A stretch of DNA of 64,000 bases from Alphaproteobacteria bacterium (lineage in GTDB: Bacteria; Pseudomonadota; Alphaproteobacteria; CAAHEQ01; UBA3637), in the NCBI GenBank assembly GCA_045532865.1, contig JAZSGT010000028.1, positions 18,507-82,506 of the forward strand, written 5' to 3'. Made by a program: the position numbers and the translations under genes. The notes beneath the pieces are model-generated. The model saw nothing but the letters and a program-made list of their open reading frames with translations. It was not told the DNA's origin and did no database searches. Shown piece after piece: positions 2,358 through 61,891 of the stretch. Numbering within the stretch: position 1 is the stretch's first letter; each line of letters opens with the position of its first letter.

Positions 2358-3362
2358 ATGAAAAAGATACTTTTATTATGTACTTTTTTGTGTTGTGCCA
2401 CGCCAGTAAAAGCTGATTTTGCTGATGCTGAAAATTATTTTACACAACAGGATTTTTCTCGTGCATTTTCAGAGTTTTTACCCCTTGCAAATAATGGGGA
2501 CTTTCGCTCGCAATATTATGTGGGCTATTTGTATTTAAATGGTTTAGGTGTTTCTCAAGATATAAGAGAAGCTATTCGTTATTTGAAAGATTCTGCCGAT
2601 CAAAATTATGATATGGCACAGGCTTTACTTGCTTTTTTATATGAAGAAGGGCATGCAGTACCACAAGATAAAGAAAAGGCATTGGAGCTTTATAAGTTGG
2701 CTGCTGCTCAAAGTAATGCTTCGGCAAATTTGAATCTAGGGGTGATGTATTATAATGGTTCAAATGTTGAAAAAAATCATAGTGTTGCATTGGAGTATTT
2801 TAAAAAAGTTCCATTAGAGGAAAAGCCAATTGTCGCTCGTTATATTGGGGATATCTATTTAAATAACGTTGATTTAAAAGATTATAGAAGTGCGTTGTAT
2901 TATTATTCAGTTGCTGCTGCTACGGGTGACTTAGATGCTTTTTTTGCATTAGGTGAAATTCATCGTAAGGGTTTAGGTGTTCCAAAAAGTGTAACAAAGG
3001 CACTTCCTTATTACAAATATGCTGCATCAAGAGGTTATGCGCCTGCTCAGTATATGCTTGGAATTGTTTTTGCAAATGGTGATGGTGTTACCAAAGACGT
3101 TGGTAAAGCTTATGCGTGGATTTCATTTGCAGCTGAGCAAAAGTTTATTAATGCGGAAAAAGCAATTGAACAACTTTCAGCCAACATGTCAATTTCTGAT
3201 TTTGACCAAGCACGGCGCCAGATTGCATTGATACAAGATAATGAAATGGGAAAAATGGCAATGCCTGTTATTTCTAAAGTTTCATTAAAGTCGGACGAAA
3301 AACAAACTCATAATAAAGCAGGAAATAGACGGCGTAGAGGGGTTCGTTCTAGGAGGAAATAA
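2358..3362 (+). CDS. Sel1-repeat (TPR-like) protein with signal peptide
   Basis: Repeated Sel1 motifs (AxxxYxxAAxxGxxxAQxxLGxxY...G); N-terminal signal peptide; basic C-terminal tail. Confidence 0.8.
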   Translation: MKKILLLCTFLCCATPVKADFADAENYFTQQDFSRAFSEFLPLANNGDFRSQYYVGYLYLNGLGVSQDIREAIRYLKDSADQNYDMAQALLAFLYEEGHAVPQDKEKALELYKLAAAQSNASANLNLGVMYYNGSNVEKNHSVALEYFKKVPLEEKPIVARYIGDIYLNNVDLKDYRSALYYYSVAAATGDLDAFFALGEIHRKGLGVPKSVTKALPYYKYAASRGYAPAQYMLGIVFANGDGVTKDVGKAYAWISFAAEQKFINAEKAIEQLSANMSISDFDQARRQIALIQDNEMGKMAMPVISKVSLKSDEKQTHNKAGNRRRRGVRSRRK

Positions 3363-18157: not shown

Positions 18158-19126
18158 TTAAATCTGCTGATTGTTTTTTAAGAATTCTTTGAGGCCTTTT
18201 ATGTCCCTATTGGCTAAAATTTGTTTGTAAATTTTAGCATTAGGTTGTCCATGGAATAATCCCATTAAATGAGGGCAAATAATACTTAATTGTGAAGTGT
18301 TCTTTTCAAGATAAGGTACCATATTTTGTAATATTTCAATTCTTGAGAGTGGTGAAGTTGTTTCTTGATAAAATAGTGAATCAACATCTTTTAAAGCGTA
18401 GGGATTTCCATAAGCTAGACGACCAATCATTGCTCCATCAACGTATTTTAGATGTTCTTGTGCCTTTTCAATGGTTAGAATATTACCATTTATGGAAATA
18501 ATCATATCAGGAAAACTTTTTTTTAGTTGATATACTAATTCATAATTTAAAGGTATTTTTTCAGTTCGGTTTTCTTTGGGAGACCAATTTAATTTTGCTT
18601 TTCGTGCATGAACAATGAGGTGGTGGCATCCGGCATTTTTCATTAAAGATGCAAAGTTGAAAAGCTCTTTAAACCCATCTCCTTGAACATCGGATAATGA
18701 AATTCTTGTTTTAACGCTTACCGGAATATTCGCTTTTGCAATCATGTTTGAAACACATTCAGCTACGAGTTCAGGTGTTTTCATTAAAATAGCACCAAAT
18801 TTACCTGCTTGAACACGTGAAGATGGACAACCTGCATTGATGTTAACGCCTTGGTATCCGAAATCGGACGCGTATTTTGCGCAATCAGCCATCATATCTG
18901 GATGGGATCCCCCAATTTGCAAAATAAGGGGATGTTCAACCTCATCATATCCGATCAGTTTTTTTCTGTCTCCAAGTAGAATGGCCGGCATAGCTGTCAT
19001 TTCGGTGTAAAAAACAGCATGTTTAGTAATTTGCCTTAAAAAATAGCGAAAGTGCCTGTCGGTCCAATCTAACATAGGGGCAATTGATATTTGATGTGTT
19101 TTTTTGTTTTTTTCTTGAGTTTTCAT
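18158..19126 (-). CDS. dusA: tRNA-dihydrouridine synthase A
   Basis: SIAPMLDWTDRHFRYF...NINAGCP motifs; start trimmed to the ATG at 19126 (MKTQEKNKKTHQISIAPM). Confidence 0.85.
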   Translation of the reverse strand: MKTQEKNKKTHQISIAPMLDWTDRHFRYFLRQITKHAVFYTEMTAMPAILLGDRKKLIGYDEVEHPLILQIGGSHPDMMADCAKYASDFGYQGVNINAGCPSSRVQAGKFGAILMKTPELVAECVSNMIAKANIPVSVKTRISLSDVQGDGFKELFNFASLMKNAGCHHLIVHARKAKLNWSPKENRTEKIPLNYELVYQLKKSFPDMIISINGNILTIEKAQEHLKYVDGAMIGRLAYGNPYALKDVDSLFYQETTSPLSRIEILQNMVPYLEKNTSQLSIICPHLMGLFHGQPNAKIYKQILANRDIKGLKEFLKNNQQI

Positions 19127-26815: not shown

Positions 26816-26872
26816 AAACTTAGGGGGTATTTGCGCCTAGTGTTTGTTGTATCTGAAAAGAAGGGGACGCTG

Positions 26873-29647
26873 ATGCAAGTAAAACGATACAAAAATGGCC
26901 AATCTGGAAGAAGTATGTTGGAAATGCTTAGCGTTTTGGCAATTCTTGGAATTTTGTCAATATCAGGTATTGTGGGGTATCAATATGCGATGCGTCTTTA
27001 TCGTATTGCTGAAACATATGATGAGGTGAGTGTTACTATTTCAGGGGGTAGAACGTGGCCTGTTTTGGAGCATTATGGTCCTTTAACAAAAGTTGCGAAT
27101 GAAACAGGTGCTCCTTATCCACATGCAGATACATTAGCTTATAACGTTCCAATTCGAGAAGTTGTTTCAAAAGTAAATTATCGAAATGCACTAACAGCTG
27201 CAGAAGCATTGGGTGAAAGTGCGACTGATTATTATGAAAGACGTGAATATGAAGCGTTTTCATCCAAAATATTTGCACCTGTATGGGTGCGGGCAGAAAC
27301 ACCTGAAGCATGGTCTGTTCGTGTAACTGGGCTTTCATATGATATGTGTGCTTCTCTTGTTACAAAAAGGGAGTTGGGCTATCAATATGTTTATGTTGCT
27401 TTAAATGATGATAGTGGAAATCCGGTTGATCCAAATTATTGGGATTTTCCACTTGTAACAAGTTATTCAAATAGCGATATAAAAGATCATGATAAGGTAA
27501 AGGCTCTTTGTGAAGCAATTGATCCAGGGCATAGATCTGTTCCTCCTGCCTATACCTTTCAAAAAAATATTTCTCTTTTGAATAAAGATGGTTCCAATAT
27601 TACTTCAGTTGGGGAATGCAAAATTGAAAATGGTGTTCCTTCTGTTCGTTGTATGGCATTTAGTGCCCGTGTGGATAATGCGCCATTACAAACATTGGTT
27701 TTTTACTGGGGAGCAAAAGCTGAAGATGAGCCTATTCCTTTTGAAACGTGTAGAGCTGGTACAATGTATGATGGGGATGGTAATCCAAGTCAATATTGTT
27801 GTGAAACAGAAGCTAGGGGTCTTTGGATTGATGGTCCAGATATTTGTTGTGCTTTAGGTGAGAGTTTGCCATCACCTGAAACTGTTCAAATTGCTGGCAA
27901 ATATTATAGATTAGATCGTGATTTGACTGGTAAAAACACGGATGGGAACGATGAACCACTTTGTGATGATACCCCTCCCACGGATAACTGTTGTATTGGT
28001 GGAACACCATGGTATGTGGGAGATGATCCAGCAAACATTAGGGGAGCTTGTAAAGGAAACTGTCCTTCAGGTCCTGTATCAGCAACTGTTCCTAACAGAG
28101 TAGAACACAGTTGGTGTTGTGAGACTCAGGCTGGTGGAATATGGAAATTAAGACCAGGAAGCCCAAGTAATGCGAGACTTCCACTTTCTTCATCTCCAAA
28201 GTCCCCTTTAAACGGAAGCGGAGGTGCCTTGTGTTGTTGGGGAGGCAGTGGCAGTGTTTTAGCATATGACAGTTCAAATCCAATGTCTTGTTTTGCACCT
28301 AATGTATGGAGTAAAAAACCACCAACATTGGTTACAGGGGTTGTTAATCATCCGTTGAAGAATACGGGTATGTCTTGTACAAAAAAAGGACCTAATGGTG
28401 GCACATCTTCAGATTCAGATGATGATGACGATGATGATTCAACAAAAACCTGTCCAACTGGTTATACATACAGTGATGCAGCTGATTCTACTGGAACAAT
28501 CCCTGCACCAGGTTGTATACAGCAGCAAACTGCTATGGGTTACTATTGGTGTTGTCCAGATGATTCAACAAATTCAAACTCGAGATCTGTTGATAATTCT
28601 TTAGGAGATGGATCTTCAAAGTCTCGTTCATATTCTAACAATTCAGATTTCAATGATCCAGATTCCGGAGGTTCTGATTTTAATGATGACGATTCTTGTA
28701 TTGTTCAGCCTCCTTTGCCACCCTTAGATATATATGGAAATGAAAATACTGATTGTTGTCCAACAGAAAAGAAAAACGGAACTTATCAAATAAATCCATA
28801 TGTTGGTGCAAAAAAAGTTTCACCAGCTTGTTGTGATGCAATACCAAATATGACAACAGTTTATGGCAAAGGTGGTGATCGGTTCTGTAATTCAGAATGT
28901 TGTAATAGTGGAGAAATTAAAGAAGGATTTGCAAATTTTCAAAATGATCCAACAGCATCTAGGTATCGCTCTGGTATCTTTGTAAACGCCAAAGGGGCTT
29001 CAGTTCCATCAATGTGTTGTCAGTTGTTGGATGCAAATGGCTCTTCATCAAAATTCCAACATCCAGAATGTTGTGAAACTGATTTAGCTCACGATGTTGG
29101 AGATGAAGCTGGTCGTTGGGTTGGTATAGGTGAGATTACATTAAATATCACAGTTTATGATACAGAGACAGGAACATGCACTTATCAAATGATTTCAAGT
29201 GCTAAAAATGCTTGTTGTAAGAAAAATGAAAATGGGTATGATATTGAGTGTAATGAAAATGTTTTCTGTTGTGGAACCGATCAAGAAGAAAATAAAAAAT
29301 CAGAAGTTTGCTGTCCGTTAGTTACAGGACATTATTGGAATGCAGAAAAAGGAGAATGTACGCCTTGTAGTGTTCCTGTTGATGGATGTGGGCCTTATTG
29401 TGAAGAAGTTGGTGAACACTGCTGTATTAAAGATATAAATGGCTGTTCTGAACCATATGCATGGGCTCCAAGGGGTGTAACCTCTTCTTCTAGTGGTGTT
29501 TATATCGAACAATCCTGTTGCCATGAGTGTATAAATGATACAGGTAAAAAGTTCATTGGCTTTACAAAAGCAGCATATGATAAAAAAGATAGAATTATTG
29601 GTGATTGTTATAATGGCTTTACGCTGAGATCGTCAACTAAACATTAG
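26873..29647 (+). CDS. giant cysteine-rich type IV pilin-like (prepilin N-terminal cleavage/methylation domain) protein
   Basis: RBS aagaagggga followed by ATG. N-terminus is MQVKRYKNGQSG|RSMLEMLSVLAILGILSISGIVGY, with Glu at +5 after Gly. The next ~230 aa are Cys-poor. The following ~650 aa hold about 51 Cys, including about 18 CC doublets (CCETEARGLW, CCETQAGGIW, CCPDD, CCPTE, CCPLVTGHYW). There is a poly-Asp run SSDSDDDDDDDS and an SDFNDxDS tandem repeat. Confidence 0.7.
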   Translation: MQVKRYKNGQSGRSMLEMLSVLAILGILSISGIVGYQYAMRLYRIAETYDEVSVTISGGRTWPVLEHYGPLTKVANETGAPYPHADTLAYNVPIREVVSKVNYRNALTAAEALGESATDYYERREYEAFSSKIFAPVWVRAETPEAWSVRVTGLSYDMCASLVTKRELGYQYVYVALNDDSGNPVDPNYWDFPLVTSYSNSDIKDHDKVKALCEAIDPGHRSVPPAYTFQKNISLLNKDGSNITSVGECKIENGVPSVRCMAFSARVDNAPLQTLVFYWGAKAEDEPIPFETCRAGTMYDGDGNPSQYCCETEARGLWIDGPDICCALGESLPSPETVQIAGKYYRLDRDLTGKNTDGNDEPLCDDTPPTDNCCIGGTPWYVGDDPANIRGACKGNCPSGPVSATVPNRVEHSWCCETQAGGIWKLRPGSPSNARLPLSSSPKSPLNGSGGALCCWGGSGSVLAYDSSNPMSCFAPNVWSKKPPTLVTGVVNHPLKNTGMSCTKKGPNGGTSSDSDDDDDDDSTKTCPTGYTYSDAADSTGTIPAPGCIQQQTAMGYYWCCPDDSTNSNSRSVDNSLGDGSSKSRSYSNNSDFNDPDSGGSDFNDDDSCIVQPPLPPLDIYGNENTDCCPTEKKNGTYQINPYVGAKKVSPACCDAIPNMTTVYGKGGDRFCNSECCNSGEIKEGFANFQNDPTASRYRSGIFVNAKGASVPSMCCQLLDANGSSSKFQHPECCETDLAHDVGDEAGRWVGIGEITLNITVYDTETGTCTYQMISSAKNACCKKNENGYDIECNENVFCCGTDQEENKKSEVCCPLVTGHYWNAEKGECTPCSVPVDGCGPYCEEVGEHCCIKDINGCSEPYAWAPRGVTSSSSGVYIEQSCCHECINDTGKKFIGFTKAAYDKKDRIIGDCYNGFTLRSSTKH

Positions 29648-29659
29648 GGAGATAGAAAA

Positions 29660-30832
29660 ATGAAGAAATGGACATACAAAATAATGGCAATTTTTTTCAT
29701 CGTTAGTTCTGTCTCTTGGCAGGCATTAGGTGCAGTTGATTGTCAAAAAGTTTATAATAATATTGATTTAGAGTATAATTTAAACAATAAACCTGCTTCA
29801 GCCAAATGTTGTGTTGATATGTGTGGTGGAGTAGGTGGTCTTGACAATACAGGGGCTTGTTGCTGTGGGCCAAGATGTGCAGGAGATGATCCTTCAACCG
29901 AACCAACAGAACCACAAAATTGTGAAGAAGAAATAATGTGTTGCTTTGATGAGCCAGAATATTATGATAAGCATCCAGATTGTTGTGAGTTAAATGATAA
30001 ATATGAGTTTGTGGCAAGCTATTATGAGGATAGTTGGGGTGACCTTTCTAAATTAAGACCTGAAAGTCAGTGTTGTATTAAAGATGAACCTAAGAATGTA
30101 AGTGGACAGGTAACAAAAACTTGTTGTGAAGGTTTAATGGGCTCTTATAGAAATGGAAACGTCTGGGCAGGTTCTTCTAGTTCTGAAAGTGGAAATCCTT
30201 CCAGTGTTGGAGATGGTGATGAAGCTTGTTGCAAACAAGGATATCCCTACAATTATGCTGGAGAGATGACTGGGCCATGCTGTGAACTTTATGGAACGGA
30301 ACTCAAGTTTGATAAACCCGATAATACACATGAACAAACAGATCTGATAAAGCATTGTCATTTTTATGAAGACAATACACTGAATGTATCAGCCTGTTGC
30401 GTTAAAGGAAGTCGAAGGTTATGTGATAGCAATTCTGAAGACGAATATAGAGGGGCTCCGAGTTTTATTTGTTGTTATGCTGCACAAGGAGAAGTTTGGG
30501 TTAAGGTTAAGGATGAAGGAACTGAGAGATGGGAGCCTGCTAAAGGGAATATTGGTACGCATAAAAACATTGAACATGATTCTACTGCATGGAAGTGCTG
30601 TACAACATTTGGTTACAGAGGTGTTGGTGCAACCGATTGTACACCAAAAGATGGTGTTACAAGCGATTTTGATGATATAGATTGCAGTAAAGTGGTTAGC
30701 AATTATAATCCAAATTATAACTTAGAGCATAGAGCTGAAGCAACAGCTTGTTGCCAGGATTTCTGTGGGTCTTCAGGTTTTATTGATGATACGGGAACCT
30801 GTTGTTGTTCTCCTGGATGTGGTGGGGGATAA
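29660..30832 (+). CDS. cysteine-rich (CC-doublet) secreted protein, partner of the pilin-like protein
   Basis: RBS gggagat. Sec signal peptide MKKWTYKIMAIFFIVSSVSWQALGA. 38 Cys in 390 aa. Terminal modules are AKCCVDMCGGVGGLDNTGACCCGPRCAGDD near the N-terminus and ACCQDFCGSSGFIDDTGTCCCSPGCGGG at the C-terminus. Confidence 0.7.
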   Translation: MKKWTYKIMAIFFIVSSVSWQALGAVDCQKVYNNIDLEYNLNNKPASAKCCVDMCGGVGGLDNTGACCCGPRCAGDDPSTEPTEPQNCEEEIMCCFDEPEYYDKHPDCCELNDKYEFVASYYEDSWGDLSKLRPESQCCIKDEPKNVSGQVTKTCCEGLMGSYRNGNVWAGSSSSESGNPSSVGDGDEACCKQGYPYNYAGEMTGPCCELYGTELKFDKPDNTHEQTDLIKHCHFYEDNTLNVSACCVKGSRRLCDSNSEDEYRGAPSFICCYAAQGEVWVKVKDEGTERWEPAKGNIGTHKNIEHDSTAWKCCTTFGYRGVGATDCTPKDGVTSDFDDIDCSKVVSNYNPNYNLEHRAEATACCQDFCGSSGFIDDTGTCCCSPGCGGG

Positions 30833-30860: not shown

Positions 30861-30889
30861 AAAAACCACCGATTTTATCGGTGGTTTTC
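30861..30889. terminator. bidirectional terminator between the Cys-rich operon and fabI
   Basis: aaaccaccgat ttta tcggtggttt. Confidence 0.8.
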
Positions 30890-30906: not shown

Positions 30907-31737
30907 CTATTCTGACAGTTTAAATTGAGAGAGTAACTCTGCTGATTTTGTTGCATTGCGAGGATTAATCATTGCATTTTTGTTATATCCTGCATCAACA
31001 TGAATAATTTCACCCGTTACGCCAGCAGCTAAATCTGAACAAAGATACATGCCTGTGCCACCAACATCTTCAATTGTTACGTTGCGACAAAGGGCTGAAT
31101 TGTTCTCTGTCCAGCCAAGAATTTGTCTGAAATCACCAATACCGGCAGCAGCAAGTGTGCGAATTGGTCCGGCAGAAATAGCATTCACACGAATGTTTTG
31201 ATGTCCAAGGTCAAAAGCAATAAAGTGAATAGATGCTTCTAATGCAGCTTTTGCAACGCCCATTACGTTATAGTTTGGTAAATATCTTTCAGCACCTAAA
31301 TAGGTGAGTGTTAAACAAGCGCCACCATCTGTCATTAATTCAGAAGCACGTTTACAAACATCTGTGAATGAATAACAAGAAATGAGCATTGAATTGGTGA
31401 AGTTTGCTTGAGTTGTGTCAACATATCTGCCTTTAAGTTCATTTTTGTCAGAAAAAGCAATAGCGTGAACAACAAAGTCCAATTTGCCCCACTTTTTTTT
31501 TAGTGTTGCAAAAACATTATCCATTGATTCTGGATTGAGTACATCGCATGGGATTAAAATATCTGAACCAATGCTTTCAGCCAATGGTTTAACACGTTTT
31601 TCAAGTGCTTCACCTTGGTATGTAAAAGCAATTTCAGCCCCTTGATCTGCCATGGCTTTTGCAATACCCCAAGCAATGGAGTGGTCGTTTGCAACACCCA
31701 TGATGAGACCTTTTTTCCCTGCCATAATTCCTGTCAT
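30907..31737 (-). CDS. fabI: enoyl-[acyl-carrier-protein] reductase (NADH)
   Basis: MTGIMAGKKGLIMGVAND...; SDR fold with the FabI Y-x6-K region; start set at the ATG with an aagga RBS. Confidence 0.9.
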   Translation of the reverse strand: MTGIMAGKKGLIMGVANDHSIAWGIAKAMADQGAEIAFTYQGEALEKRVKPLAESIGSDILIPCDVLNPESMDNVFATLKKKWGKLDFVVHAIAFSDKNELKGRYVDTTQANFTNSMLISCYSFTDVCKRASELMTDGGACLTLTYLGAERYLPNYNVMGVAKAALEASIHFIAFDLGHQNIRVNAISAGPIRTLAAAGIGDFRQILGWTENNSALCRNVTIEDVGGTGMYLCSDLAAGVTGEIIHVDAGYNKNAMINPRNATKSAELLSQFKLSE

Positions 31738-31949
31738 ATTTTTTCCTTCCATAATATTTCACACATTATATTTTATAGACTATTCTAGATAAAGATATAC
31801 GAAAAGTCAAAAAAAAGCAAATGACACTTTTATGACAGTTGTAAAATAAAGGCTAGTAGCTCAAAATGAGCGTTTTTTTTGTTTTTGTCTGGTTGACTTT
31901 TATTGAAAATAAGTGTATTATTTTTCAACATAATTTAAAGGAGTATAAT

Positions 31950-33722
31950 ATGAAAGCTGCTGAGTTAAGAAAAAAGTTTATCGATTTTTTTGTTTCAAAA
32001 AATCATGTGGAGATTAAAAGCGCTCCATTAATTCCTGATAATGATCCAACTGTTCTTTTTACAATGGCTGGGATGCATCCATTGGTTCCGTTTTTGTTGG
32101 GCGCTCCTCATCCAGCTGGGAAGCGTTTGGTTGATTTTCAAAAATGTATCAGAACAGGTGATATTGAAGAGGTGGGTGATAAGGTTCATTTAACTTTTTT
32201 TGAAATGCTTGGTAATTGGTCCATTGGTGATTATTTTAAAAAAGAAGCAATAGAATATAGTTTTGAATTTTTAACAAGCAAAGAATGGCTAGGACTTGAT
32301 TTAGATAAATTAGCATTTACTGTTTTTGCAGGGAATGCGCATGCTCCTTTTGATGAAGAGGCTTATAATACATGGCTTTCATTGGGTGTTTCTCCAAACA
32401 AAATTGCAAAACTGGAAGCAAACTGGTGGGGTCCAGCAGGGGTAACAGGCCCTTGTGGTCCAGATACAGAAATGTTCTATTGGACTGGCTCAGAACCAAC
32501 ACCAGAAGTTTTTGATCCAGAAAATCCTCTTTGGGTCGAAATTTGGAATGATGTTTTGATGCAATATAATAAAAATGAAAAAGGCGAGCTTGAAAAGTTA
32601 GCCCATCCAAATGTTGATACTGGTATGGGTTTTGAACGTGTTGTTGCTGTATTAAATGGATTTGACAGTTGTTATGACACAGAACTTTTCGTTCCATTAT
32701 TTGAAGCGTTGGATAAATTCCGTGGTATTGAAACGCCTTCTGAACGGACGAGAGAAGAACGCATTATTATTGATCATGCAAGAGCTGCCACGTTTATTAT
32801 GGCTGAAGGGATTACTCCAGGGAATAAAGATCAACAATACCAATTGCGCCGTATCGTTCGCAGAATGTTAGGGGAAGGGCATAAATTGAATTTAGCTCCA
32901 GGTTTTGCATTACCTGTTGCTGAAAAAGTGATTGAAATGTATCAAGGATATTATCCAGAACTTGCTAAAAACAAAGAACTTATTTTATCAGCTTTTGAAT
33001 TGGAAGAAAAAGATTTTTCAAAAACACTTGTTCGTGGTGTTCAAATGTTTGAAAAAGCTATTCAAGATGAAAAAAATGTTCAAAATGGCGTTTTAAGTGG
33101 TTTGGTTGTTTTTGATTTGGCTCAAACATTTGGGTTCCCAAAAGAAATGGCTGTTATGATGGCTGAAGAAAAAGGTCTTAAAGTGAATTTAAAAGAATTT
33201 GATGAAGCCTTTAAACACCATCAAGATATTTCTCGTGGGGCATCTGCTCCTTGTGGTTTAGCTGATAAAAAAGAAGAAACAACAGCACTTCATACAGCAA
33301 CACACTTGTTGCACCAAGCACTCAGAACAGTTCTTGGAACTCATGTGGAGCAACGTGGTTCTCACATTACAGCTGAACGGTTGCGTTTTGACTTTTCTCA
33401 TCATGAAAAAGTTTCTCCAGATGATTTGAAAAAAGTTGAAGATCTTGTCAATGAGGTTATTCAAAAAGATATGCCAGTTCTGTGTGAAGAAATGACTCTT
33501 GATGAGGCTTTACAAAAAGGAGCAATTGGTCTTTTTGCTAATAAGTATGGTGAAAAAGTAACTGTTTACTCTATGGGTGATTTTAGTAAAGAGGTTTGTG
33601 CAGGTCCTCACGTAACAAATACTGGTGTTTTAAAATCATTCCATATCATGAAAGAGGAAAGCTCTAGTAAAGGTGTTCGCCGAATAAAAGCAACGGTAGG
33701 ATTTGTGAAAAACAATGCATAA
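31950..33722 (+). CDS. alaS: alanine--tRNA ligase, compact form (lacks beta-barrel linker and C-Ala domain)
   Basis: AlaRS class II catalytic core (FTMAGMHP, GDYFK, WGPAGVTGPCGPDTE, DTGMGFERV); editing-core HTATHLLH and CAGPHV motifs present; only about 590 aa; RBS aaaggag. Confidence 0.85.
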   Translation: MKAAELRKKFIDFFVSKNHVEIKSAPLIPDNDPTVLFTMAGMHPLVPFLLGAPHPAGKRLVDFQKCIRTGDIEEVGDKVHLTFFEMLGNWSIGDYFKKEAIEYSFEFLTSKEWLGLDLDKLAFTVFAGNAHAPFDEEAYNTWLSLGVSPNKIAKLEANWWGPAGVTGPCGPDTEMFYWTGSEPTPEVFDPENPLWVEIWNDVLMQYNKNEKGELEKLAHPNVDTGMGFERVVAVLNGFDSCYDTELFVPLFEALDKFRGIETPSERTREERIIIDHARAATFIMAEGITPGNKDQQYQLRRIVRRMLGEGHKLNLAPGFALPVAEKVIEMYQGYYPELAKNKELILSAFELEEKDFSKTLVRGVQMFEKAIQDEKNVQNGVLSGLVVFDLAQTFGFPKEMAVMMAEEKGLKVNLKEFDEAFKHHQDISRGASAPCGLADKKEETTALHTATHLLHQALRTVLGTHVEQRGSHITAERLRFDFSHHEKVSPDDLKKVEDLVNEVIQKDMPVLCEEMTLDEALQKGAIGLFANKYGEKVTVYSMGDFSKEVCAGPHVTNTGVLKSFHIMKEESSSKGVRRIKATVGFVKNNA

Positions 33723-34555: not shown

Positions 34556-34631
34556 TGATTTAATTTGTTAAAAAAGAGTTTTTATGGTAAAATAAAAATA
34601 TGTGATACAAAAGAAAATAGGGGAATGGTCT

Positions 34632-36203
34632 ATGGCTGATAATAAAATGCTTTCACTTCAAGAAAAAAGAAAATTAGCAAGTTGTTTTGATTTAAGCTTA
34701 TTATCTCAAGATGATAGAGAATTTTTTTATTCCATATTATATAATCATTTAGATGAATTCCCTATTTTAACCATGCTTGCAAAAGATGTGATGAATGGTT
34801 CAAATAAAAAAATATTTATTAATGTGAAAAAGTTAGATTCTAACATAAATGGGTATCAAGGCAATGGTGAAATTTGTTTTTCAACGCAATTATGGCATTC
34901 TTGTAAACAAAAAAAAGATACAAAAAGAGCGGCTTCTACATTTTGGCATGAGATTATGCATGCAATTCAGCAAGATAAGTTGACTTATTCCTATTCAAAA
35001 AGAGGATATATGGTGTATCGTCAATTTATTGAAGCTGAAGCAATGAGTTATTCTAATTTGATGGTGCCTAGGTGCGAATTTGAAGATGAACTTTATAAAT
35101 CAATTTTAAAAGATTCACCATCTAAGTTTGAGGCTCAAAAAAGATATATTGCTGTTTCTACAAGATTACGTTTAAATGCTGATAGAGAACTGGCAAAATT
35201 TGATGCTCAAAATATTATGGGAAAATATTTTTCAGAATCAAAATGGGAAGATTCTGAAAAATATACAATCAAAGGTTGGCGTGATTTTTATTATAAATAT
35301 CACCAAGATTATGCTAAAAATATATGGGAAACAAAAGGAAGCTATGATAACAAATTAATTTCAGAAAGTGAAAAATATTTTGAAGACAGATATGGTATTA
35401 AAATTTCTGCAAAAGCAGCTATTTCTGAAGATGTTATTAATAATTATGGCTTATCAACTGGAATATTAAATACACGTATTATAAAGTTAAATGATGCAGA
35501 AGTTTTTGAAATTTCTAAATGGCGAGAACTGTCAGATAGACATGGTAATAAAGCATATACATTGGATATGCCAAATATGGATCCATCTTATATTAATGAT
35601 GTGTATGGGCATATTCTTGCAAATGGAATTCATGTTAAAAAGACGTATGCAATCCATAGAGATGGGTTTTCATCAAGATTACTTCAGATTGTAAATACAC
35701 CTGAAAATATTAAAAAGTTTATTGAAAAATGTGAGACATCAAAACAACCAAAAGTAAGAGAAGATATTTGGCCTAAACCAGATGAAAGAAAATGTGGCTA
35801 TGGTAAGCAAATTTTTAATAATGCTATTATTGCTATTGATGTTGAAAATCCTCCCATTTTTCAAGTTGGAAAATACAAGAATATTAGTGTTGATTTTAAT
35901 GAGTTCCTTTCCCCTAAAAATAAAAAGTTTTTAAAAGAAGGTGGTTTGATTTTTGTTGGTAAGCATCCAGATTCGTTAGCGATTGATCTTCCAAAAGAGG
36001 TGATGGATAAGGCTTGTAAATATTGTGCTTTTAAAGAAAGTGATCCAACTGTATCTCGATTGCAAGGATACTTGTTTGTTGATAGGGAAGGGTTTCTTTG
36101 TTACAAAGAGTGCTCAACAAATGGTTCGTTTGTTCAACGGGGTAATCCAAATAGATTAAACCAATGTAAAAATCGAGAGCAATATTCTATGTCAACAAGA
36201 TAA
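34632..36203 (+). CDS. hypothetical protein with HExxH (WHEIMHAIQ) zincin-like motif
   Basis: 523-aa ORF from the ATG at 34632 (GTG at 34602 also possible). HEIMH followed about 30 aa later by EAEA, gluzincin-like. No signal peptide. Confidence 0.5.
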   Translation: MADNKMLSLQEKRKLASCFDLSLLSQDDREFFYSILYNHLDEFPILTMLAKDVMNGSNKKIFINVKKLDSNINGYQGNGEICFSTQLWHSCKQKKDTKRAASTFWHEIMHAIQQDKLTYSYSKRGYMVYRQFIEAEAMSYSNLMVPRCEFEDELYKSILKDSPSKFEAQKRYIAVSTRLRLNADRELAKFDAQNIMGKYFSESKWEDSEKYTIKGWRDFYYKYHQDYAKNIWETKGSYDNKLISESEKYFEDRYGIKISAKAAISEDVINNYGLSTGILNTRIIKLNDAEVFEISKWRELSDRHGNKAYTLDMPNMDPSYINDVYGHILANGIHVKKTYAIHRDGFSSRLLQIVNTPENIKKFIEKCETSKQPKVREDIWPKPDERKCGYGKQIFNNAIIAIDVENPPIFQVGKYKNISVDFNEFLSPKNKKFLKEGGLIFVGKHPDSLAIDLPKEVMDKACKYCAFKESDPTVSRLQGYLFVDREGFLCYKECSTNGSFVQRGNPNRLNQCKNREQYSMSTR

Positions 36204-41255: not shown

Positions 41256-41332
41256 TGGTCGGGGCGACATGATTCGAACATGCGACACCTTGGTCCCAAA
41301 CCAAGTACTCTACCAGGCTGAGCTACGCCCCG
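41256..41332 (-). tRNA. tRNA-Pro (anticodon TGG), CCA encoded
   Basis: The reverse complement reads CGGGGCGTAGCTCAGCCTGGTAGAGTACTTGGTTTGGGACCAAGGTGTCGCATGTTCGAATCATGTCGCCCCGACCA. The anticodon loop is TTTGGGA. Confidence 0.9.
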
Positions 41333-41402: not shown

Positions 41403-41767
41403 AATGTCAGACAATCTATAAGCCGGGTTTTGTAATCGATAATCATTCGTCTGGGATAAACATTACTGTTTACCTCTAGCGACCTACCTCTTGAGAGCAG
41501 ATCAGAAACGCTCTTTTTACAAAGAAAATCTTTGGCTCTCTTCACTTGGTCTTGCTTCCGATAGGGCTTGCCGTGCCATTTTAATCGCTTAAAATGCGGT
41601 GAGCTCTTACCTCGCCGTTTCACCCTTACCAATTAAAAAATTGGCGGTTTGTTTTCTATGGCGCTATCCCGTGGGTCACCCCAGCTGGACGTTATCCAGT
41701 ATCGTGTTTCCGTGAAGCCCGGACTTTCCTCCAAAGTTGCCTTCAGCGATTATCCGATCGTCTGACG
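41403..41767 (-). ncRNA. rnpB: RNase P RNA (bacterial type A)
   Basis: The minus strand contains GGAGGAAAGTCCGGGCTTCACGGAAACACGATACTGGATAACGTCCAGCTGGGGTGACCCACGGGATAGCGCC...GGTAAGGGTGAAACGGCGAGGTAAGAGCTCACCGC...ACAAAACCCGGCTTATAGATTGTCTGAC. Both universally conserved P4 strands (AGGAAAGTCCGGGC and ACAAAACCCGGCTTA) are present. The 5' and 3' ends are complementary (P1). Confidence 0.85.
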
Positions 41768-53324: not shown

Positions 53325-53570
53325 ATGGAGCAAAATGAAAAAAATTATCAAAAAGAAAATTACGCATTGGGTGATGGTTCCTTTTTGTCTGAACGACAAG
53401 TAGCTGTTTTAAATCAATTGGCGCTTGGTTTATCAAATAAGCAAATTGCGCATGTTTTAGGTGTTGCAGAACCAACGATAAAAATGCATGTGAGTTCGTT
53501 ATTGAGGGCTTTTAAAGTTCAAAATCGTGTTCAAATTTTATTAAAAGCCAAAGAAAAAGATTTTGTGTAA
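53325..53570 (+). CDS. LuxR-family helix-turn-helix protein (stand-alone HTH)
   Basis: LSERQVAVLNQLALGLSNKQIAHVLGVAEPTIKMHVSSLLRAFKVQNRVQ matches the LuxR/GerE HTH signature; RBS aaggagg. Confidence 0.6.
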   Translation: MEQNEKNYQKENYALGDGSFLSERQVAVLNQLALGLSNKQIAHVLGVAEPTIKMHVSSLLRAFKVQNRVQILLKAKEKDFV

Positions 53571-53602
53571 TGCAAAGGAACAAAAAAACAGGCAAGTTTA
53601 AT

Positions 53603-53637
53603 GACTTGTCTGTTTTTTTATGTATATTTTTGATAAT
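53603..53637 (+). terminator. rho-independent terminator
   Basis: acaggcaagt ttaatg acttgtctgt followed by T7. Confidence 0.7.
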
Positions 53638-53740
53638 TGTATTTGTGATTATTTTTATATTTTGGGGTAAAAATAAATTGCTTTTGCCCTTAAAATTTGG
53701 TACGTTAAGAAAAGTAAAAAATAAATTTAAAGAGGGTTAT

Positions 53741-55381
53741 ATGATTAAATCACATTCATTTTTGTTTGGAGCTATTGTTTCAACTTTGGTATTATATAGT
53801 GGTTCAGAAGCTTGGGCAACACAAAATAACCAAACTGTGCCAACTCAAACAGAACAACAAAAAAAGATTCAAGTTCCTGTTTATTCAAAAGAGGATGTTA
53901 TTTTTCATGAAGGTTTATTTTTGAAAAAGACTGATAAACAGCCTGTGAATGGTGTTCTTCAAGCAAAATCAGAGAGTGGAAAAGTAATTGCACAGACATT
54001 TTTTTATAATGGTATGCCTCATGGGGAGAGTGTTACGTTTTATGATAATGGGAAAACTAAAACTCATGAAAAATATAATCAAGGCCGTTTGCATGGAAAA
54101 TCAGTTTCTTATTATGAAAATGGTAAAATTTTAAACGAATCCTATTTCTATATGGGTAGACCTGAAGGTAAATCAACAGTTTTTTATGAAGATGGAAGTG
54201 TCAAGTTTGAAACCATGTATAAAAATGGGAAGAAAAATGGGGATGATAAAGCCTTTTTTGAACAAGGAAAACCCATGTTGTTGCGCCATTATACAGATGG
54301 TGTTTTAGATGGACCTGTTAAAGAATACTATCAAAATGGTAATTTAAAGGGTGAGGGAGTATTTAAAAAAGATGGACCCGAAGGTATTGTGAAAACATAT
54401 TATGAAAATGGTAAATTAAGAACAGAGGAAATGTACGTTAAAGGTAAAAAACAAGGGCCTTCTAAGTCATATTATGATTTTGGACAATTGATGCAAGAAG
54501 AAAATTATGAAAATGATTTGTTGACGGGTATTGCTAAAAATTATTATGAAGATGGTCGCATTGAAAAAGAGGCTACATATCAAAATGGAAAACAAGAAGG
54601 GGCTGTGAAAGTTTATTATAACACAGGACAAATAAAACTGGATGCGATTTATAAAAATGATTTGCCACATGGAAAATTAACAACATATTTCTTAGATGGA
54701 AATATTCAAACAAGTGTTGAAATGGTTGATGGCAAATTGAATGGAAAAATAGTTGAATATTATGAAAATGGACAAATTGCTTTAGAAAAAAATTACAAAA
54801 TGGGATTAGAAGATGGCCCTGTAATTGCCTATTATGAAAATGGGAAGAAAAAAATGGCAACCATTTTTAAAGATGGTAAAAAAGAAGGGGAATTTGCAAA
54901 TTTTTATGAGGATGGTTCTCAAAGTACACGAACAATGTTTAAAAATGACAAACCTCATGGTGAATTCAAACAATATTATCCAAATGGACAGCTCAATGTT
55001 GAAGGCGCATATATCGATGGTAAATTAAATGGAGTACAAAAAATTTATTACAATACAGGAAAGCTTCAAAGTGAAGATTTTTACAAAAATGATTTGCTAG
55101 AAGGCGAAAGTAAGACATATTATGAAAATGGTGTTTTAAGAAGTACTTCTTATTTTAAAGAAGGGAAGAAACACGGTAAGGCACTCATTTATGATGAAGC
55201 TGGGACATTGATTTTAGATATGACATTTGATATGGACAATTTAGTTGCTGCTAAAACTAAAAAAATGATGGATGATGAAGCAGCAGCTACTGGTGAAAAA
55301 AAGGTTGAAGCAAAACCAGCGATAGAAAATAAAGAAACTGCATCTATTCAAAATAAAGAATCTATAAAGACAACGAATTAA
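53741..55381 (+). CDS. MORN-repeat-variant (YwqK-family) repeat protein with signal peptide
   Basis: More than 15 tandem YYENGKL/KNGK.EG...YYENG repeats; signal peptide MIKSHSFLFGAIVSTLVLYSGSEAWA; start set after the upstream terminator, with an aagaggg RBS. Confidence 0.65.
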   Translation: MIKSHSFLFGAIVSTLVLYSGSEAWATQNNQTVPTQTEQQKKIQVPVYSKEDVIFHEGLFLKKTDKQPVNGVLQAKSESGKVIAQTFFYNGMPHGESVTFYDNGKTKTHEKYNQGRLHGKSVSYYENGKILNESYFYMGRPEGKSTVFYEDGSVKFETMYKNGKKNGDDKAFFEQGKPMLLRHYTDGVLDGPVKEYYQNGNLKGEGVFKKDGPEGIVKTYYENGKLRTEEMYVKGKKQGPSKSYYDFGQLMQEENYENDLLTGIAKNYYEDGRIEKEATYQNGKQEGAVKVYYNTGQIKLDAIYKNDLPHGKLTTYFLDGNIQTSVEMVDGKLNGKIVEYYENGQIALEKNYKMGLEDGPVIAYYENGKKKMATIFKDGKKEGEFANFYEDGSQSTRTMFKNDKPHGEFKQYYPNGQLNVEGAYIDGKLNGVQKIYYNTGKLQSEDFYKNDLLEGESKTYYENGVLRSTSYFKEGKKHGKALIYDEAGTLILDMTFDMDNLVAAKTKKMMDDEAAATGEKKVEAKPAIENKETASIQNKESIKTTN

Positions 55382-61815: not shown

Positions 61816-61891
61816 GACCCCATCGTCTAGAGGCCTAGGACATCGCCCTTTCACGGCGGTAACCGGGGTTCGAATCCCCGTGGGGTCGCCA
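61816..61891 (+). tRNA. tRNA-Glu (anticodon TTC), CCA encoded
   Basis: GACCCCATCGTCTAGAGGCCTAGGACATCGCCCTTTCACGGCGGTAACCGGGGTTCGAATCCCCGTGGGGTCGCCA. Confidence 0.9.

Follow-up and report, generated by a model that had tools for sequence, protein, structure and literature searches.

The window analysed here, a stretch of 64,000 nt (contig JAZSGT010000028.1 of assembly GCA_045532865.1, forward-strand positions 18,507–82,506), encodes a cysteine-rich protein of 390 residues whose two ends are homologous, anciently duplicated copies of one domain of ~45–50 residues. With a cysteine content of 9.7%, the open reading frame (ORF) ranks first among the window ORFs of at least 150 residues (window median, 1.2%), and its product is acidic (isoelectric point ~4.4). 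The protein runs from a signal peptide through an N-terminal module, a Pro/Thr/Glu-rich linker and a core of ~250 residues rich in CC doublets to a C-terminal module. The gene and the elements flanking it are as follows.

29660–30832 (+): cysteine-rich ORF, 390 residues, 38 Cys
29647–29651 (+): Shine-Dalgarno sequence GGGAG, 8 nt before the ATG at 29660, overlapping the stop of the upstream gene (sequence inspection)
29660–29731 (+): Sec-type signal peptide, MKKWTYKIMAIFFIVSSVSWQALG / AVDC, with a basic n-region, a hydrophobic core and small residues at –3/–1 (read by eye from the sequence)
29732–29878 (+): N-terminal module, residues 25–73, beginning at the predicted mature N-terminus; 8 Cys (C28, C50, C51, C55, C67, C68, C69, C73)
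29879–29920 (+): Pro/Thr/Glu-rich linker AGDDPSTEPTEPQN, joining the N module to the core
29921–30673 (+): central core, residues 88–338; 4 single Cys besides 9 CC doublets that are conserved, with a conserved GVTSDFDD at its end
30674–30829 (+): C-terminal module, residues 339–390, extending to the final residue and followed by a TAA TAA stop; 8 Cys (C342, C364, C365, C369, C381, C382, C383, C387)
30866–30888 (strand not assigned): hairpin CCACCGAT-TTT-ATCGGTGG, with an A-run and a T-run on its flanks, between the 390-residue gene and a convergent fabI-like gene (30907–31752, –)

Homologous modules at the two termini

The N and C modules align without gaps over 50 residues, with a BLOSUM62 score of 153 as compared to 41 ± 7.7 (maximum 76) in composition-preserving shuffles. 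When the family profile was aligned to itself as an internal-repeat check, residues 26–76 paired with residues 340–390 at an E-value of 1e-15 (probability 98.6%). A preliminary description of the gene had called the two modules near-identical; the peptides it quoted are present and the repeat at both ends is indeed homologous, but the copies share only 45% protein identity, their DNA alignment is visibly diverged, and each module is longer than described, starting ~22 residues further upstream, at [AED]-[VI]-D-C-x-[KL]-V-x-x-N-x4-Y-N-L (AVDCQKVYNNIDLEYNL... and DIDCSKVVSNYNPNYNL...).

In an alignment of 12 copies, the invariant positions are D3, C4, V7, N10, Y15, N16, L17, C26, C27, C31, G32, G41, C43 and C45, giving a module core of the form D-C-x2-V-x2-N-x4-Y-N-L-x8-CC-x3-C-G-x8-G-x-C-x-C. 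The six invariant cysteines are thus spaced C-x21-CC-x3-C-x11-C-x-C. The CCC-x-P-x-C string that had been taken as the shared core of the modules does not have that status, the middle cysteine of the triplet (C44) and the last cysteine (C49) not being invariant across copies.

Upon comparison of the modules, N-type and C-type copies formed separate clusters; the duplication therefore took place before these species diverged, and both copies have persisted since. The modules are under purifying selection, with ratios of nonsynonymous to synonymous substitution (dN/dS) of 0.13–0.51 overall (0.13–0.51 for the N module, 0.14–0.48 for the C module), values obtained with synonymous sites near saturation. 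A six-frame regular-expression scan of the window found no module beyond the 390-residue gene.

AlphaFold2 predicted the full-length protein poorly (seven sequences; predicted local distance difference test score, pLDDT, of 45). Only the two modules were modelled with confidence (pLDDT 73–87; N module 73–81, C module 78–87), with identical secondary structure, the core being of low confidence and the linker, whose sequence varies among orthologues, below 50. Modelled alone, with the 12 copies as alignment, the module reached a pLDDT of 89.6 and a predicted template modelling score of 0.70, and was predicted to form three short helices (4–8, 13–18 and 20–30) plus a beta-hairpin. The discrete fold that had been proposed for the modules is thus upheld by structure prediction and, as modelled, the module is an independently folding domain.

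Given the Cys/Gly-rich composition of these segments, one may ask if their resemblance is simply a low-complexity coincidence, with no real feature behind it. This can be regarded as practically negligible, being contradicted by the significance of the repeat, the conservation of the modules in orthologues (whose absence the preliminary description had named as grounds for dropping the idea), the clade-wise separation of the two copies, the purifying selection and the confident predicted fold.

Searches for described relatives gave nothing. None of the 12 module copies matched a Pfam family at E ≤ 10, nor did the whole protein at E ≤ 1; NCBIfam gave no match for the 390-residue protein, a profile search no PDB-sequence relative of the module, and Foldseek no fold relative in the PDB or BFVD (best E about 9). 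On these sequence comparisons, the module is a previously undescribed domain, matching no described family and restricted to one clade.

Relatives, core and upstream partner

A word-indexed search of 5.8 billion clusters retrieved six homologues of the 390-residue protein (49–58% identity), all unnamed and without Pfam domains. When 1.84 billion representative proteins were searched exhaustively with a hidden Markov model, five passed E ≤ 0.001. New among them were P0008 (which carries a divergent N module) and P0009 (no module), both matching over the core only, as well as P0010, a module-only match (E 2.6e-4). One further orthologue came from a genome scan (locus L009). Searches of plasmids, phages and viral contigs found no relatives, and a degenerate DNA pattern for the module hit four stretches in the JGI metagenomes, only one of them real, namely the P0010 gene again. 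A word-indexed search with the module alignment returned nothing and carries no weight, as it missed even the parent proteins. In the literature we found nothing on this protein family.

The homologues differ in the modules they carry (SP, signal peptide):

SP-N-core-C: window protein, P0002–P0004
SP-N-core: P0005, L009 orthologue
SP-N'-N-core: P0006
SP-core-C: P0007
SP-divergent N-core: P0008
SP-core: P0009

The number of module copies per homologue is 0, 1 or 2, with the same domain at both ends in 4 of 10. The genes of P0005, P0006 and the L009 orthologue are complete and stop soon after the conserved ...TSDF[ND]D. The otherwise unrelated P0010 is part of an ORF of ≥390 residues, on a contig of 42% GC, which has long Thr/Ser/Pro linkers, one full module and other Cys-rich parts; a half-module-like CC-x3-C...C-x-C segment precedes the full module. 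Since the copy number varies between 0 and 2, the pairing with the upstream gene (see below) is kept without the module, and a copy occurs in P0010, the module is, to judge from these architectures, an accessory, mobile domain.

In P0006 (L007, 948–1919) two N-terminal modules stand in tandem, there is no C module and two CC doublets have been lost internally. The first of the two falls outside both the N-type and the C-type cluster. As the contig is a Logan assembly of only 2.5 kb, this arrangement may be an assembly artefact.

The signal peptides of the orthologues are laid out like that of the window protein, with AVA|E or AAA|E at the cleavage site. Some contain a cysteine, and we considered a lipoprotein; this was rejected, as the –1 residue is Val or Thr rather than Gly, Ala or Ser.

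The core is the part common to all homologues, including those with no module. Its invariant cysteines are C88, C94/95, C108/109, C138/139, C207/208, C233, C246/247, C255, C271/272, C313/314 and C327, and the CC doublets are spaced 12–40 residues apart. The 390-residue protein has 15 adjacent-Cys pairs, as compared to 3.6 ± 1.75 (maximum 10) in 5000 shuffles. Of the roughly nine CC-x(n)-W/Y units that had been described for this region, the nine CC doublets are real and conserved in orthologues, but they do not make up a demonstrable sequence repeat: the best internal match, 125–157 with 176–209, had a probability of only 9.5%.

The acidic stretch closing the core deserves separate mention. 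A motif S-D-F-[ND]-D-x-D, then Cys, occurs just before the C module (GVTSDFDDIDC; 30662–30685), and S-D-F-[ND]-D-x-D recurs two or three times both in the window's upstream protein (28600–28640, residues ~577–595) and in the closest relative of that protein, P0012 (SDFNDPDSGGSDFNDDDSC). More distant members of the upstream family lack it. A calcium-binding or processing motif is possible.

The upstream partner gene ends 12 nt before the 390-residue gene:

26873–29647 (+): upstream partner gene, 924 residues from a conserved ATG; the mechanical ORF starts at TTG 26831 (938 residues)

A simple scan found no terminator-like site between the two cysteine-rich genes. Because of this and of the 12-nt gap, they are probably co-transcribed. 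The hairpin beyond the 390-residue gene is likely to be a bidirectional intrinsic terminator, shared with the fabI-like gene; it was found by reading the sequence, the simple terminator scan having missed it (its T-run is only 4 long). Wherever the context of a homologue was readable, the gene followed a member of the upstream family and preceded fabI, and this operon-like synteny holds in at least eight loci. The module-less P0009 (L020) is still paired with a 910-residue member of the upstream family. Conversely, members of that family exist without a partner of the 390-residue type: L018 has none, and L017 has a different downstream gene.

The upstream partner contains 55 cysteines (5.8%, second among the window ORFs) and 16 CC adjacencies, as compared to 3.2 in shuffles. 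It starts with a short basic leader and then G|RSMLEMLSVLAILGILS, resembling a prepilin-type class III signal, after which come a conserved head of ~300 residues and a variable, CC-rich region. The leader, followed by G-R-[ST]-M-x-E-x-L-x-V and ~20 hydrophobic residues, is found in 13 of the 14 proteins of the upstream family, none of which has a Pfam domain. The fourteenth, P0011 (910 residues), is the window's own protein with its start placed further downstream in the annotation; read from the ORF in the window, the motif is there too.

The annotated start of P0011 (MLEMLSV...) lies 28 codons into the ORF (window 26831–26915) and drops the leader MQVKRYKNGQSGRS. This leader is kept by all other members of the family and includes the putative site of prepilin cleavage; the start codon as deposited is probably an error.

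The upstream partner resembles type IV pilins and the pseudopilins of the type II secretion system (T2SS) in its short basic leader, in a glycine at the putative –1 position with Glu at +5, and in a hydrophobic helix of ~20 residues, features conserved throughout the upstream family. It differs from type IV pilins in having Arg rather than Phe or Met at +1, and its mature part, of ~900 residues with 50–60 Cys, is far larger than a normal pilin. Matches to pilin models (N_methyl PF07963, TIGR02532, PRK10506, PpdD and TcpA) were all below threshold. When the N-terminal profile was compared with the PDB, pilins made up 5 of the 9 matches, in register with G|FTLIE (E 0.056–0.67). It is plausible, on this resemblance, that the partner is pilin-like. 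The two cysteine-rich proteins share a compositional style, not a demonstrable ancestry: a BLASTP match between them (E 0.004) was only Cys-driven, and profile–profile comparison gave a probability of 2.5%.

Mature upstream proteins often have an odd number of cysteines (55 in the window protein at 26873–29647, 59 in L019, and 61, 61 and 53 among L001, L002 and L017), a parity that suggests one free or intermolecularly bonded thiol. An intermolecular disulfide arising from complementary odd counts would fit L019 (59 + 27); the window pair (55 + 38) and the other loci do not fit and the idea was dropped, as we saw no consistent complementarity between the upstream and downstream proteins.

Probable cysteine pairing and a proposed role of the modules

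The modules had been described as possibly metal- or disulfide-stabilised. Every copy contains 6 or 8 cysteines (13 of 13 in the close orthologues). C44 and C49 are both present in 8 of the 13 copies from close orthologues, as well as in the P0010 and P0008 copies, and both absent from 5 copies. In the P0005 module, C44 is lost and C49 kept, and a new cysteine appears at position 36, so that the count is still even. The divergent P0008 copy lacks both C31 and C45; their joint loss suggests that C31–C45 is an additional disulfide pair. The cysteine totals of the eight close orthologues, counted in the mature proteins, are all even (38, 36, 36, 36, 30, 34, 28 and 28). Because cysteines are gained and lost in pairs and parity is conserved, disulfides are favoured over a metal–thiolate cluster. 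Of the two options, then, these counts favour modules stabilised by disulfides rather than metallothionein-like ones.

The explanation that we prefer is the following. After Sec export, all cysteines would be oxidised to disulfides, three per minimal module and four where the covarying C44–C49 pair is present, amounting to about 19 disulfides in the 366 residues of the mature protein. Oxidation would make the modules rigid knobs that resist proteases, placed at the ends of a core laddered with disulfides. The knobs would most likely bind a ligand or another protein, acting as interaction modules (the weakest step of the scheme), and by analogy we infer a binding or adhesion role. The number of modules would then determine the valency of a partner, on the cell surface or outside the cell, of the giant pilin-like protein encoded by the co-transcribed gene, the modules themselves not being the element that couples the 390-residue protein to it. 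Overall, that the modules are oxidised accessory binding knobs on a secreted, CC-rich partner of a pilin-like protein has, in our judgement, an even chance of being correct. Several points weigh against it. The two most distant homologues have odd mature totals (27 and 25), the upstream partner is of mixed parity, and the habitat is the anaerobic gut. The 64-kb window holds no pilus, T2SS or Dsb genes; the module alignment used for AlphaFold2 is shallow (12 copies); and no sequence or structural relative of known function was found in Pfam, NCBIfam, the PDB or BFVD.

The preliminary description had instead suggested that the terminal modules might be docking caps, attaching the 390-residue protein to the upstream pilin-like one. 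The 12-nt spacing with no intervening terminator, the synteny of the two genes wherever a 390-residue-type protein is encoded and the CC-rich character of both products are consistent with docking. As stated, however, the proposal is not supported by the comparison of architectures: the pair is kept with the module-less P0009 and with homologues having only the N or only the C module, upstream-family members occur without the partner, and the six-frame scan detected no module-like sequence in the upstream protein. Since pairing persists without the module, which in turn occurs in the unrelated P0010, the modules cannot be indispensable for linking the two proteins, and we consider docking unlikely. 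We regard as quite unlikely that the end modules pair with one another, head-to-tail or homotypically and possibly through intermolecular disulfides, and so polymerise, much as mucin or von Willebrand factor does, into a mesh or into chains. The presence of the same domain at both extreme termini in the four homologues mentioned above, the tandem duplication in another and the flexible linkers would suit such self-association, but half of the homologues carry fewer than two copies, and an even number of cysteines per module argues for intramolecular pairing.

Sequestration or sensing of metals by the cysteine clusters, in the periplasm or outside the cell, would be in keeping with the dense local Cys and Gly, with the CCC triplet and with an anaerobic gut habitat, where thiolates could persist. 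Yet neither CCC nor the PxC cysteine is conserved, cysteine changes always occur in pairs, the module has an invariant aromatic/hydrophobic core (V7, Y15, L17) and a helical fold predicted with confidence in the absence of metal, and no metallothionein or other Pfam family matched at E ≤ 10. These same observations tell against the earlier likening of the modules to metallothioneins or keratin-associated proteins, and we judge metal binding improbable. The size and cysteine content of the modules, delimited by linkers, are also typical of disulfide-rich peptides, and the modules might be cut at the linkers and released as toxins, bacteriocins or signals, by analogy with two-domain venom SCREPs, a concept taken from PMC6262176. 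Against such a release, we found no protease site, maturase, immunity gene or transporter nearby, and all neighbours are housekeeping genes; RlmN, encoded two genes upstream, is an ordinary rRNA methyltransferase, and no SCIFF or bacteriocin model matched. This is a very improbable alternative.

If the modules are oxidised binding knobs, a gut anaerobe exports a protein with ~19 disulfides, composed of a new mini-domain and a ladder of CC doublets, beside a pilin-like protein of ~900 residues and more than 50 Cys. For bacteria, such extreme disulfide chemistry outside the cytoplasm would be unusual. Protein engineering might also find in the module a new, compact cystine scaffold. A tentative extension, and one we think rather doubtful, is that the new cystine-stabilised domain family, the CC core and the giant Cys-rich partner together form a new disulfide-cross-linked pilus-tip or surface adhesin of uncultured gut Alphaproteobacteria, which, if true, would be unusual for a bacterium of an anoxic habitat. 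The family is tiny: some ten sequences out of 15 billion proteins, every one of them from a single clade of uncultured gut Alphaproteobacteria (one related locus, RGIG4140, is from roe-deer colon). No known pathway is linked to it, and it addresses no long-standing question.

Genomic setting and comparison with known systems

The window has a GC content of 33.5%, and the genes around the cysteine-rich pair are housekeeping genes, including those for IalB-like, RlmN, nitroreductase, FabI, AlaRS, ADP-ribosylglycohydrolase, MetRS, ParC, LeuA and MurJ proteins, and further those for BamE, YidC, MnmE/G, MdoG/H and the RNA of RNase P. The presence of BamE indicates a diderm envelope. The RNA genes, all of an ordinary kind, are listed below.

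41403–41765 (–): RNase P RNA, class A
41256–41332 (–): tRNA-Pro(TGG)
1540–1617 (–): tRNA-Met(CAT)
61816–61891 (+): tRNA-Glu(TTC)

Some neighbouring genes have features of their own. An ORF of 533 residues (34602–36203, +) has no Pfam match and corresponds to a syntenic gene of ~515–522 residues lying, in related loci, between those for ADP-ribosylglycohydrolase and MetRS; because of its HExxH motif (FWHEIMHAIQ), it may be an uncharacterised metalloprotease-like protein. The AlaRS-like gene (31866–33722, +) is short, its counterparts in related loci having 590–618 residues with tRNA-synt_2c and tRNA_SAD domains, whereas a typical bacterial AlaRS has roughly 870; its mechanical ORF starts ~28 codons upstream of the conserved start. 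A MORN_2-repeat protein of 603 residues (53570–55381, +) and a Sel1-repeat protein of 334 residues (2358–3362, +) are of kinds often seen in host-associated bacteria.

Among known cysteine-rich systems, metallothioneins and keratin-associated proteins resemble the modules in their local CCC and C-x-C strings near Gly and Pro, a likeness confined to the window protein. Metallothioneins differ from the module with its invariant Y15, L17 and V7, its predicted ordered fold and its paired gain and loss of cysteines, while for keratin-associated proteins there was no Pfam match and the locus is bacterial, with housekeeping neighbours. The SCIFF/ranthipeptides gave no NCBIfam match either (TIGR03973 included); the module is embedded in a secreted protein of 390 residues, and the only radical-SAM gene nearby is that for RlmN. 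The C-terminus (...CCCSPGCGGG) lacks the hydrophobic segment of a MYXO-CTERM, GlyGly-CTERM or PEP-CTERM signal and had no NCBIfam match.

The core recalls the stacked hairpins of granulin, a 12-Cys motif with four closely spaced CC doublets, in its many CC doublets, where each cysteine presumably bonds a different partner. In granulin, however, the doublets are 5–8 residues apart and not 12–40, the model of our core is of low confidence, and Pfam did not match it to that family.

Two further groups of cystine-stabilised domains can be compared with the module. Plant non-specific lipid-transfer proteins (nsLTPs) and 2S albumins are helical bundles built on an eight-cysteine motif (C..C..CC..CXC..C..C) in four helices and ~90 residues. 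The module shares with them a predicted small, helical, disulfide-stapled architecture with CC and CXC elements. It differs in the order of its cysteines (C, CC, C, CXC, with or without a final C), in having ~50 residues, half the size, and in its bacterial host; neither Pfam nor the Foldseek comparison with the PDB placed it among the eight-cysteine proteins. Hevein and CBM18-type domains are examples of the small, disulfide-rich accessory modules, cystine-stabilised and with a binding function, that secreted modular proteins carry on Pro/Thr-rich linkers. Sequence and fold searches did not match the module to these, and both its cysteine pattern (C-x21-CC-x3-C-x11-CxC) and its helical prediction are different; like them, however, the modules have ~45–50 residues with 3–4 putative disulfides, are terminal and delimited by linkers, and occur in variable copy number and in different hosts.

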